From NCBI RefSeq assembly GCF_055900595.2, contig NZ_CM148325.1: 64,000 nt of DNA; one strand, written 5' to 3'. The notes under the pieces are model-generated. The model had not been told where the DNA came from, searched no databases, and saw nothing but the letters and a program-made list of their open reading frames with translations. The translations under genes and the position numbers were made by a program. This document shows positions 4,096 through 39,158 of the stretch, piece after piece. How positions within the stretch are numbered: the stretch's first letter is position 1; each line of letters opens with the position of its first letter.

Positions 4096-4713
4096 TCACT
4101 CAGGATCCTTTTCGCGCTTTCTTTTGAATTTCGTCCAGATTTTTGTCTCCTGACGACGCCACAGACGCTGGATGTTGTCATGATGGCGCAGCAGGATCAG
4201 GCATGAGAGCATCGAAACCGGGAAGGTGAATTGTGGCTTAAACCACCAGACGTAAAATGGAGCAATCAGTGCGCTGACAATCGCTCCCAGCGACGAGTAT
4301 CCGCTCAATAGCACGGTCAGTAACCAGGTTCCCGCCATTACTCCGGTGAGATCCCAGCCAATTGGTGCGATGGCACCAAAAGCGGTAGCAACGCCTTTTC
4401 CTCCTTTAAAACCGAAGAAAACGGGCCAGATGTGTCCAAGGCAGGCGGCGATGGCAATTAAGCCTAGCCAGAAGGGGCTGACACCTAATTCATACGCGCC
4501 CCAGACGGGCAACATTCCTTTCAGAACGTCGAAAATCAGTACTGCTACGGCTGCTCCCTTGCCACCGATACGTAACACATTGGTTGCGCCAGGATTACCG
4601 GAGCCGCTGGTTCGCGGATCGGGCAGCCCACACAAGCGGCAAACCAGAATGGCACTGGAAATGGAGCCGCAGAGGTACGCGATGAGGATCATTCCAGGCG
4701 CGATTGCACTCAT
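4096..4713 (-). CDS. plsY: glycerol-3-phosphate acyltransferase PlsY
   Basis: 205-aa polytopic membrane ORF matching PlsY (YgiH). Confidence 0.88.
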
Positions 4714-32783: not shown

Positions 32784-33099
32784 TTTTTAACCTCAAGGTG
32801 AGACGTTTGCCGACTATAGTACGTCACAGAGCGGTACGGTGAAATTAGCAAAATGTGCAAACTCTTTTGCGAATTTAGCAAAAGTCTGATCTTGCTCCGA
32901 TTCACCGATGCAGGATAAATATTTTCTGAAAATGACAATACTGATAGCCATTCCTCATAATTCCTACTCGCACCGGATTAATTTACAGGTTTGGTTCGGT
33001 TTTTTGGGGATTAAAAATATGGCGTTGGATAAGTAAAAATGAAAATATCAACGCGTCACGTTGATAATTATAAATGGATTTTTATGAGCGTGCTAACAT

Positions 33100-35483: not shown

Positions 35484-35634
35484 TTTTTCATCCCTGCGAT
35501 AACCATATTTGCTGCCAGTAAACCGTGTTGTAACGCGCTCTGTACAGCACTAAATTTTATTTTTTTCCCTTAAGAAGTTGTTAAGGACTATCTTGTTAAA
35601 TGCTCGAAAACAGACATTAAAGGGAGTAATAAAC

Positions 35635-36027
35635 ATGAAAAAATTCGCAGCAGTAATCGCAGTAATGGCCCTGTGCAGTGCACCGGTGATGGCAGCAGAG
35701 CAGGGCGGTTTTTCTGGTCCATCGGCAACACAAAGTCAGGCCGGAGGATTCCAGGGGCCGAATGGCAGCGTAACGACCGTAGAAAGCGCAAAATCCCTGC
35801 GTGATGACACTTGGGTCACCCTGCGCGGCAATATCGTTGAACGTATCTCTGACGATCTCTACGTGTTCAAAGATGCCAGCGGTACTATCAATGTTGATAT
35901 CGACCACAAACGCTGGAACGGCGTGACGGTGACCCCGAAAGATACCGTTGAGATTCAGGGTGAAGTCGATAAAGACTGGAACTCTGTTGAAATTGACGTC
36001 AAACAGATCCGCAAAGTAAATCCGTAA
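35635..36027 (+). CDS. ygiW: BOF/YgiW-family periplasmic OB-fold stress protein
   Basis: 130-aa product from MKKFAAVIAVMALCSAPVMAAEQGGF...; signal peptide. Confidence 0.85.
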   Translation: MKKFAAVIAVMALCSAPVMAAEQGGFSGPSATQSQAGGFQGPNGSVTTVESAKSLRDDTWVTLRGNIVERISDDLYVFKDASGTINVDIDHKRWNGVTVTPKDTVEIQGEVDKDWNSVEIDVKQIRKVNP

Positions 36028-36079
36028 TTGTTAGCGCTCCCGGGACACGTTCCCGGGAATAATTTCGCAGGGAGGCAAA

Positions 36080-36562
36080 ATGAAAAACCTGACACTGGAT
36101 GTAAATATTATCGATTTCCCATCAATCCCTGTGGCGATGTTGCCACATCGCTGTAGCCCTGAATTGCTCAACTACAGCGTGGCGAAATTTATCATGTGGC
36201 GTAAAGAAACGGGGCTTTCTCCTGTTAACCAAAGCCAGACTTTTGGTGTCGCCTGGGATGACCCTGCCACCACCGTACCGGAAGCGTTTCGCTTTGATAT
36301 CTGCGGCAGCGTTAACGAACCGATTCCCGATAATCGTTATGGCGTGAGTAATGGTGAACTTACCGGTGGACGTTATGCCGTGGCCCGCCACGTTGGCGAG
36401 CTGGACGATATTTCACATACGGTATGGGGCATCATTCGCCACTGGCTGCCTGCAAGCGGCGAGAAAATGCGTAAAGCACCGATTCTGTTTCACTACACCA
36501 ATCTTGCCGAAGGGGTAACAGAGCAGCGACTGGAAACGGATGTTTATGTGCCGTTGGCGTGA
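36080..36562 (+). CDS. ygiV: GyrI-like small-molecule-binding domain protein YgiV
   Basis: 160-aa ORF MKNLTLDVNIIDFPSIPVAMLPHR... Confidence 0.78.
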   Translation: MKNLTLDVNIIDFPSIPVAMLPHRCSPELLNYSVAKFIMWRKETGLSPVNQSQTFGVAWDDPATTVPEAFRFDICGSVNEPIPDNRYGVSNGELTGGRYAVARHVGELDDISHTVWGIIRHWLPASGEKMRKAPILFHYTNLAEGVTEQRLETDVYVPLA

Positions 36563-36899
36563 TGAAGAATCTTTACCGGAGTGTGAGTCAAATCACTCGC
36601 TATCAGTTTAAGTTAACGATGCCACAGGCGTAATGTTGTCCGCTCAGACTCTGACGGCACAGGATTTTGTCCTTCCACACAGAAACCGCCATTGGCGGTT
36701 TTCCGCTGCATAATCCTCAGGATTATGTCTATAGCAAAGAGTTGTATATAAAGGCACATTGGTGCCTTTATCGCCGTCGGAGCACGTCCGGCGGCGCTAT
36801 TCACGCTGATCTCCTGTGACTCGACGCGGCAGATAATGTAGTATCTCCGGCAATATTGCCCCTTTGAAGGCTGGCGAATAAGTTGAGGAATCAGAATTA

Positions 36900-39158
36900 A
36901 TGAGCGATATGGCAGAGCGCCTTGCGCTACATGAATTTACGGAAAACGCCTACTTAAATTACTCCATGTACGTAATCATGGACCGTGCGTTGCCGTTTAT
37001 TGGTGATGGTCTGAAACCTGTTCAGCGCCGCATTGTGTATGCGATGTCTGAACTGGGACTAAATGCCAGCGCCAAATTTAAAAAATCGGCCCGTACCGTC
37101 GGTGACGTACTGGGTAAATACCATCCGCACGGTGATAGCGCCTGTTATGAAGCGATGGTCCTGATGGCACAGCCGTTCTCTTACCGTTATCCGCTGGTTG
37201 ATGGTCAGGGGAACTGGGGCGCGCCGGACGATCCGAAATCGTTCGCAGCAATGCGTTACACCGAATCCCGGTTGTCGAAATATTCCGAGCTGCTATTGAG
37301 CGAGCTGGGGCAGGGGACGGCTGACTGGGTGCCAAACTTCGACGGCACTTTGCAGGAGCCGAAAATGCTGCCTGCCCGTCTGCCAAACATTTTGCTTAAC
37401 GGCACCACCGGTATTGCCGTCGGTATGGCGACCGATATTCCACCGCATAACCTGCGTGAAGTGGCTCAGGCAGCAATCGCATTAATCGACCAGCCGAAAA
37501 CCACGCTCGACCAGCTGCTGGATATCGTGCAGGGGCCGGATTATCCGACTGAAGCGGAAATCATCACTTCGCGCGCCGAGATCCGTAAAATTTACGAGAA
37601 CGGACGTGGTTCAGTGCGTATGCGCGCGGTGTGGAAGAAAGAAGATGGCGCGGTGGTTATCAGCGCATTGCCGCATCAGGTTTCAGGTGCGCGTGTACTG
37701 GAGCAAATTGCTGCGCAAATGCGCAACAAAAAGCTGCCGATGGTTGACGATCTGCGCGATGAATCTGACCACGAGAATCCGACCCGTCTGGTGATTGTGC
37801 CGCGTTCCAACCGTGTGGATATGGATCAGGTGATGAACCACCTCTTCGCAACCACCGATCTGGAAAAGAGCTATCGTATTAACCTCAATATGATCGGTCT
37901 GGATGGGCGTCCGGCGGTGAAAAACCTGCTGGAAATCCTTTCCGAATGGCTGGTGTTCCGCCGTGATACCGTGCGCCGCCGTCTGAACTATCGTCTGGAG
38001 AAAGTCCTCAAGCGCCTGCATATTCTGGAAGGTTTGCTGGTGGCGTTTCTCAATATCGACGAAGTGATTGAGATCATTCGCAATGAAGATGAACCGAAAC
38101 CGGCGCTGATGTCGCGCTTTGGCCTCACGGAAACTCAGGCGGAAGCGATCCTCGAACTGAAACTGCGTCATCTCGCCAAACTGGAAGAGATGAAGATTCG
38201 CGGTGAGCAGAGTGAGCTGGAAAAAGAGCGCGACCAGTTGCAAGGCATTCTGGCGTCCGAGCGTAAAATGAATAACCTGCTGAAGAAAGAACTGCAGGCA
38301 GACGCGCAAGCCTATGGTGACGATCGTCGTTCGCCGTTGCAGGAACGCGAAGAAGCGAAAGCGATGAGCGAGCACGACATGTTGCCGTCTGAACCTGTCA
38401 CCATTGTGCTGTCGCAGATGGGCTGGGTACGCAGCGCTAAAGGCCATGACATCGACGCGCCGGGCCTGAATTATAAAGCGGGTGATAGTTTCAAAGCAGC
38501 GGTGAAAGGTAAGAGCAACCAACCGGTAGTGTTTGTTGACTCCACCGGTCGTAGCTATGCTATCGACCCGATTACGCTGCCGTCGGCACGTGGTCAGGGC
38601 GAGCCGCTCACCGGCAAATTGACGTTGCCGCCTGGGGCGACCGTTGACCATATGCTGATGGAAAGCGACGATCAGAAACTGTTGATGGCTTCCGATGCGG
38701 GTTACGGTTTCGTCTGCACCTTTAACGATCTGGTGGCGCGTAACCGTGCAGGTAAGGCCTTAATCACTTTACCGGAAAATGCCCATGTTATGCCGCCTGT
38801 GGTGATTGAGGACGCTTCTGATATGCTGCTGGCAATCACTCAGGCAGGCCGTATGTTGATGTTCCCGGTAAGCGATCTGCCGCAGCTGTCGAAGGGCAAA
38901 GGCAACAAGATTATCAACATTCCATCGGCAGAAGCCGCGCGTGGAGAAGATGGTCTGGCGCAACTGTACGTTCTGCCGCCGCAAAGCACGCTGACCATTC
39001 ATGTTGGGAAACGCAAAATTAAACTGCGTCCGGAAGAGCTACAGAAAGTCACTGGCGAACGTGGACGCCGCGGTACGTTGATGCGCGGTTTGCAGCGTAT
39101 CGATCGTGTCGAGATCGACTCTCCTCGCCGCGCCAGCAGCGGCGATAGCGAAGAGTAG
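36900..39158 (+). CDS. parC: DNA topoisomerase IV subunit A
   Basis: 752-aa ORF; active-site AAMRYTE motif. Confidence 0.95.

Follow-up and report, generated by a model that had tools for sequence, protein, structure and literature searches.

In E. coli, template switching is documented as a route by which quasi-palindromes are corrected (PMC7202029), and it has been proposed for conserved perfect inverted repeats in Proteobacteria (PMC5941160). The palindrome cluster upstream of parC that is described here resembles such template-switch mutations (PMC7202029; PMC5941160; PMC8794818) in one respect. Its third palindrome, P3, passed from a form pairing at 8 of 10 positions to a perfect one as if by copying the opposite arm, with the polarity given by outgroups. 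It differs from them in that the two P3 corrections fall on opposite arms and the loop has kept its orientation. Intrinsic terminators, including the bidirectional types, are also similar. P1 (GAAACCGCC-AUU-GGCGGUUUU) and P3 (AUAAAGGCAC-AUUG-GUGCCUUUAU) share with them an A-tract, a G+C core, a short loop and a 3’ U run, whereas the U-tracts of P1 and P3 are short (4 and 3 U, respectively) and the G+C cores comprise 5 bp. The third relation is to ygiS (b3020), which encodes an ABC-transporter periplasmic binding protein in K-12. A remnant is found in the same position between ygiV and parC with a 3’ reading frame of 71 nt kept, and compared to ygiS-positive strains the downstream hairpins and the parC promoter region of the remnant allele are identical. 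Rather than an element with a regulatory task, the palindrome cluster is probably a by-product of ygiS decay and thus a deletion scar of the ordinary kind.

A summary of the features is given in Table 1. In the window (the whole 64-kb stretch of DNA that was analysed) qseC and qseB are located on the minus strand, followed on the plus strand by ygiW, ygiV, a gap of 337 bp, parC and plsC. RefSeq gene names are derived from CP098223, which differs from the window at 2 of 6,337 bases. K-12 exhibits the order ygiV-mqsR-mqsA-ygiS-parC and CFT073 the order ygiV-ygiS-parC without mqsRA, the distance from the end of ygiS to parC being 137 bp in both. Intact ygiS is present in about three quarters of the complete E. 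coli genomes. Moreover, parC is directly preceded by intact ygiS in E. albertii, E. whittamii and three Citrobacter species. Hence ygiS is ancestral at this site, and the window allele represents a loss rather than an insertion or a failure to gain the gene.

Table 1. Features of the ygiV-parC interval. Positions refer to the window; L002 coordinates refer to CFT073. Arms and loops of palindromes are separated by hyphens.
Feature	Position	Strand	Sequence, match or basis
ygiV, upstream gene	36080..36562	+	160-aa ORF; RefSeq name from CP098223
ygiV-ygiS spacer relic, mqsRA-free form	36563..36640	+	68/78 identical to CFT073 L002:2856-2933
Internal ygiS fragment, nt 315-347	36641..36673	+	30/33 identical to CFT073 L002:3278-3310
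13-nt island AGAAACCGCCATT, ygiS nt 896-908, gives P1 left arm	36681..36693	+	Exact match
P1	36683-36701		AAACCGCCA-T-TGGCGGTTT; 9+1+9, perfect
Last 71 nt of ygiS (nt 1538-1608), encodes (I)GGFPLHNPQDYVYSKELYIKAH	36692..36762	+	Homology
P2	36709-36727		CATAATCCT-C-AGGATTATG; 9+1+9, perfect
P3	36748-36771		ATAAAGGCAC-ATTG-GTGCCTTTAT; 10+4+10, perfect
H4, G+C-rich 10-bp hairpin right after P3	36772-36796	+	CGCCGTCGGA-GCACG-TCCGGCGGCG; -19.5 kcal/mol
Candidate parC promoter	36816..36844	+	GTGACT, 17 nt, TAGTAT; inferred from sequence
parC, downstream gene	36900..39158	+	752-aa ORF; RefSeq annotation

The preliminary description had pointed to three perfect palindromes within 90 bp upstream of parC. 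All of them are present and slightly longer than noted there. H4, a fourth hairpin that is stronger than P1-P3, was omitted from its list. The background was estimated from 100 dinucleotide-preserving shuffles of the window. The 64-kb window contains 26 perfect palindromes of the hairpin type (arms of 8 nt or more), compared to 7.2 +/- 2.7 in the shuffles. Three of them per 90 bp are found at a single place in the window and in 0 of 100 shuffles, where the largest cluster held 1 palindrome in 93 cases and 2 in the remaining 7. The P1 sequence is unique within the window. Folding of the RNA from 36660 to 36830 predicts five consecutive hairpins (P1, P2, a small one, P3 and H4) with -69.9 kcal/mol (z = -5.6 vs shuffles). 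The loop ATTG, described before as shared by two of the palindromes, is a superficial resemblance: P1 and P3 have CATTGG in common, which stands in different registers. P1 is of the odd type, with T36692 as its centre and an AUU triloop, and P3 is of the even type, with AUUG as its loop. P1, P2 and P3 do not exhibit a common half-site.

Judged by alignment, the 337-bp gap is what is left of a ygiS pseudogene, namely a few pieces that have kept the order of the gene. The spacer relic at its left end has lost the -10 region and the start codon of ygiS. The internal fragment reaches a local alignment score of 27 compared to a maximum of 17 in 200 shuffles. The next 7 nt (TCCACAC, 36674..36680) have no significant match in ygiS. 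The 13-nt island is found exactly in CFT073, K-12 and 2014C-3338, while a match of at least 13 nt was obtained in 0 of 5,000 shuffles of the 20-nt piece. From 36692 to 36899 the window is identical to the 3’ end of CFT073 ygiS and the adjoining spacer at 204 of 208 positions (98.1%). The translation of the remnant, IGGFPLHNPQDYVYSKELYIKAH, compared to the YgiS C-terminus, VGGFPLHNPQDYVYSKELYIKAH*, keeps YgiS residues in frame, and the ygiS stop codon TGA now reads TGG at 36760-36762. PGAP places a pseudogene fragment at the equivalent of 36691-36759 in CP098223, with the RefSeq label ‘hypothetical protein, incomplete’.

Six substitutions relative to the K-12-like sequence accumulate within 18 bp of the former ygiS upstream region (36601-36618). 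A template-switch donor for this cluster was considered and rejected, the best nearby reverse-complement match being merely 8 nt long. MFDS1022581, one of the deletion genomes, carries the K-12 form at these positions. Hence this patch is mosaic.

P1 lies exactly on the join of ygiS nt 908 to nt 1538. In intact ygiS its arms are a dispersed 9-bp inverted repeat (nt 898-906 and 1539-1547, 632 bp apart) and no hairpin equivalent to P1 exists. The intact contexts at the junction are ...GAGAAACCGCCATT|TAACG... and ...CCCTACGTT|GGCGGTTTTCC..., which have a TT microhomology in common. The P1 RNA is predicted to form a hairpin of 9 bp with an AUU loop and UUUU inside and after the stem (-12.5 kcal/mol). 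All 13 deletion genomes carry P1, and it is absent from the rest of the 5,426 complete E. coli genomes. An alternative origin is a template switch by which the local quasi-palindrome AAACC-CTACG-TTGGCGGTTT would have become perfect. In that case, however, the 13-nt match to ygiS nt 896-908 has to be a product of chance. We favour a simple deletion with its junction at nt 908/1538 as the probable origin of P1, although this reading requires a coincidence of its own: only ~3.5e-4 of random deletions within ygiS would bring together inverted-repeat arms of 8 bp or more. The exact 28-nt P1 junction was not found in a metagenome scan, and no intermediate alleles were recovered.

P2 is made of ygiS codons, namely CAT AAT CCT CAG GAT TAT G (His-Asn-Pro-Gln-Asp-Tyr), which read near-identically on both strands. 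It pairs at 8/9 positions in K-12 and CFT073 (ccC) and at 9/9 with the synonymous ccT. The latter also occurs in the intact ygiS of ~78 genomes, in E. whittamii and in E1V33, while ccG is found in one deletion genome. The variable base is part of the 3-nt hairpin loop, hence the energy is the same (-8.8 kcal/mol) for C, T or G. The idea that three of the four remnant substitutions perfect a palindrome was discarded, as the P2 base is a loop position and a standing synonymous polymorphism in intact ygiS.

P3 spans the former ygiS stop codon. The form ATcAAGGCAc-ATTG-aTGCCTTTAT pairs at 8/10 positions (-6.6 kcal/mol) and is found in K-12, CFT073, E. albertii, E. whittamii, Escherichia sp. E1V33 and three deletion genomes. 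As judged from the outgroups, this 8/10 form is ancestral and the perfect form derived. The latter results from C->A at 36750 and A->G at 36762, which repair both mismatches (-13.1 kcal/mol), each single step being worth ~3.2 kcal/mol. The derived bases complement the opposite arm, A36750 with T36769 and G36762 with C36757. Perfect P3 occurs in 9 of the ~4,640 genomes matching the segment, all of them deletion genomes. Neither of the two single-step intermediates is found in these ~4,640 genomes, i.e. the two changes always occur together. A->G at 36762 destroys the ygiS stop codon and is thus tolerable only in a pseudogene. An exchange of TGA for TGG after the death of ygiS fits the order in which the deletion is seen in 13 genomes and perfect P3 in 9 of them. 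A single four-point template switch does not seem to fit both changes, since it would invert the ATTG loop and the loop is not inverted. With corrections in different arms in addition, two events or hairpin-templated repair are probably to be assumed instead of one simple switch.

Variation of the hairpins in other lineages was also considered. In the 2014C-3338 lineage (~78 ygiS-positive genomes) the P3 stem shows a compensatory G-C to A-T change at the cost of an Ala to Thr exchange in YgiS. This hints at some constraint on the predicted hairpin, but the covariation statistics are weak with one pair in one lineage, and the C1 lineage carries a disrupted P3 stem. All positions of the H4 stem pair (100%) in 10 Escherichia alleles, among which changes from U.G to U-A and from G-C to G.U occur. 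At the place of H4, Citrobacter exhibits different, unrelated G+C-rich hairpins. H4 has no U-tract on either strand; conceivable roles are those of a 3’-end stabiliser, a pause site or an insulator. Taken together, the alleles are no more than suggestive of a structural conservation of H4 and the P3 stem.

The deletion allele of the window is rare (13/5,426 complete E. coli genomes) and its flanks differ by 0.5-1.7%. The right-hand 208 bp (36692-36899) are present in essentially all of the 5,426 genomes, the whole gap in 13. All four allele combinations at 36732 and 36750 are observed. Hence either the allele moved between backgrounds or its flanks were replaced, by recombination. The block of ygiW, ygiV and the remnant (window 35500-36900 compared to L007-L010) is near-identical among the 13 deletion genomes, with the qseC and parC flanks differing by up to 1.7%.

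Other losses of ygiS were found at the same place. The commoner allele, in 1,357 of the 5,426 genomes, has ygiS replaced by a single-copy, unannotated insert of 243 bp, which is flanked by ygiS codon 7 on one side and by the terminal 43 nt on the other. A group II intron origin of the insert was rejected as it has no Rfam support. The insert is located at 4258-4510 in L003 (CP026085) and at 2740-2990 in L005, the equivalent of window 36563-36730. In strain wlxctx60 (L006, AP045833, ~4500-4510) ygiS has lost its 3’ end by a clean deletion, the borders of which are CGCTGAT direct repeats. Everything upstream of the equivalent of 36804 is lost here, including P2, P3 and H4, and the truncated ygiS ends within 96 bp of parC. 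Escherichia sp. E1V33 (L028, 3001-3431) carries an independent internal deletion which leaves roughly codons 27-85 and the last ~80 codons of ygiS, with P2, P3 and H4 intact. The window allele differs from the 243-bp replacement as well as from the wlxctx60 and E1V33 deletions, and is far rarer than the replacement. The ygiV-parC interval is thus a hotspot of independent ygiS losses with at least 4 alleles, one of them in a quarter of the E. coli genomes, which bears on work tying ygiS and mqsRA to bile-salt (deoxycholate) tolerance.

Termination of ygiV, another function suggested in the preliminary description, was evaluated in silico. A terminator was defined as a G+C-rich stem-loop followed by a U-rich tract with at least 5 U in 8. 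The consensus scan of 36000-37200 returned no site on either strand. Downstream of P1 stands UUUUCCGC, downstream of P3 UUUAUCGC; P1 fails the scan because only 4 U follow. According to the Term-seq data for K-12 (supplements of Adams et al. 2021) there is no 3’ end at the ygiS stop codon/P3, at H4 or upstream of parC, where ygiS is perhaps poorly expressed. A classical terminator discriminant is below 0 for all these hairpins. It is uninformative, since the ygiW hairpin, which is supported by Term-seq, also scores negative. P1 and P3 may possibly act as weak intrinsic terminators, perhaps in both directions.

A perfect palindrome, TCCCGGGA-CACGT-TCCCGGGA, is located at 36038-36058 between ygiW and ygiV. 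Its K-12 equivalent coincides with a strong 3’ end in the Term-seq data, 18 nt before ygiV (Adams et al. 2021).

Two functions proposed for the cluster in the preliminary description concern parC and mqsRA. A dimeric regulator of parC might use P1-P3 as operators, and the perfect dyad symmetry of 19-24 bp at a distance of 45-135 bp upstream of the putative parC -35 is what suggests it. The candidate promoter (Table 1) is below the scan threshold (9/12) and the consensus promoter scan gave no sites; a literature search for the parC promoter yielded no usable result. Against an operator, the bases in question encode part of YgiS in about three quarters of E. coli, P1 is limited to 13 of 5,426 genomes and perfect P3 to 9, and the three palindromes lack a common half-site. 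Moreover, wlxctx60 dispenses with P2, P3 and H4 and retains the essential gene parC. Conservation between Escherichia and Citrobacter begins only at TGTGACTC (36816, the putative -35 region), which is downstream of all palindromes and kept in wlxctx60. An MqsA-type motif (ACCT-N2-4-AGGT) is not found here, its sole match in the window being at 32790. We therefore regard the operator as very improbable. An attachment or excision scar of a mobile ygiS-mqsRA module would be in line with the variable presence of mqsRA at the locus (present in K-12, absent from CFT073). However, comparison with K-12 places the module junction ~115 bp to the left of P1. In K-12, mqsRA directly follows the ygiV stop codon, between TGATG and CTTTACCGG (equivalents of 36564 and 36571), and in the window this point is undisturbed and mqsRA-free as in CFT073. 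Furthermore, ygiS was not cleanly excised but left three fragments in gene order, and the gene is ancestral next to parC in E. albertii, E. whittamii and Citrobacter. The mobile-module reading is hence scarcely credible. What holds of the proposed scar is the part on ygiS, as P1 sits on an internal deletion junction of this gene; the part on mqsRA does not.

A more serious competitor is an array of insulators or terminators, by which selection after the loss of ygiS would have favoured the P1 junction and the P3 substitutions as a barrier against ygiW-ygiV read-through to the promoter of the essential parC. Two of the palindromes themselves speak in its favour. P1 combines an A-tract, a 5-bp G+C core, a triloop and UUUU, reaching -12.5 kcal/mol where the intact gene has no hairpin, and the stability of P3 doubled from -6.6 to -13.1 kcal/mol. 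The two coincidences, i.e. the P1 junction (~3.5e-4) and the location of both P3 changes at mismatches, sit uneasily with a purely neutral account and are what selection would yield. The compensatory pair change in the P3 stem of another lineage and the retention of P3 and H4 in 3 of 4 independent ygiS-loss alleles point in the same direction. On the other hand, none of the terminator-like sites passes the consensus scan, Term-seq of K-12 detects no 3’ end at the ygiS stop codon or H4, and the discriminant is below 0 for all hairpins, which is of little weight. In addition, P3 is weak in three deletion genomes and disrupted in the C1 lineage, wlxctx60 is devoid of P2, P3 and H4, and the covariation comprises one pair in one lineage. 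On balance, the predicted insulator array is unlikely. That hairpins in front of an essential gene were rebuilt and strengthened after gene loss, with P1 arising as a new terminator-like hairpin and P3 then perfected in a concerted two-base change, is a doubtful proposition. If true, the locus would be a population-level snapshot of hairpin-templated quasi-palindrome correction, or of an adaptive repair of transcriptional insulation upstream of parC.

The preferred reading, decay of ygiS, is as follows. The lineage lost ygiS by deletions leaving three short pieces in gene order. Joining of nt 908 to nt 1538 at the TT microhomology probably brought the 9-bp inverted repeat together, giving rise to P1. 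P2 consists of inherited ygiS codons. P3 goes back to the old, imperfect hairpin at the stop codon, in which two substitutions turned both mismatches into pairs once ygiS was dead. We infer that this perfecting reflects a known mutational bias, by which one arm of a quasi-palindrome is corrected from the other (template switching or hairpin-templated repair), and is not a result of selection. The comparisons establish where each palindrome came from, the direction of the changes and their frequencies in the population, the mutational mechanism and any terminating activity being presumed. P1, P2, the small hairpin, P3 and H4 would today be at most passive and may halt or delay transcription arriving from ygiW-ygiV ahead of the parC promoter. 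The P3/H4 pair may formerly have stopped or paused ygiS read-through likewise.

None of the tests applied assigns the remnant to a family of terminators, operators or RNAs; the Rfam search of 36000-37200 gave no match at E <= 1. It represents a new allele of a familiar kind, i.e. a deletion scar or pseudogene remnant with the 3’ hairpins of the old gene. Seemingly the only mildly unusual aspect is the perfecting of a palindrome after gene loss, which is cleanly sampled. The locus provides a clean case from nature in which imperfect inverted repeats turned perfect after the coding constraint was lifted, with ancestral, derived and compensated states sampled. It also calls for caution, as a striking palindrome cluster upstream of an essential gene can be the debris of a deleted gene, which genome comparison resolves.

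A minor observation concerns the reading frame across the former stop codon. The change of TGA to TGG opened an ORF of 50 codons with a TTG start (window 36667-36819, plus strand), which consists of the YgiS tail and 19 new residues running through P3 and H4.
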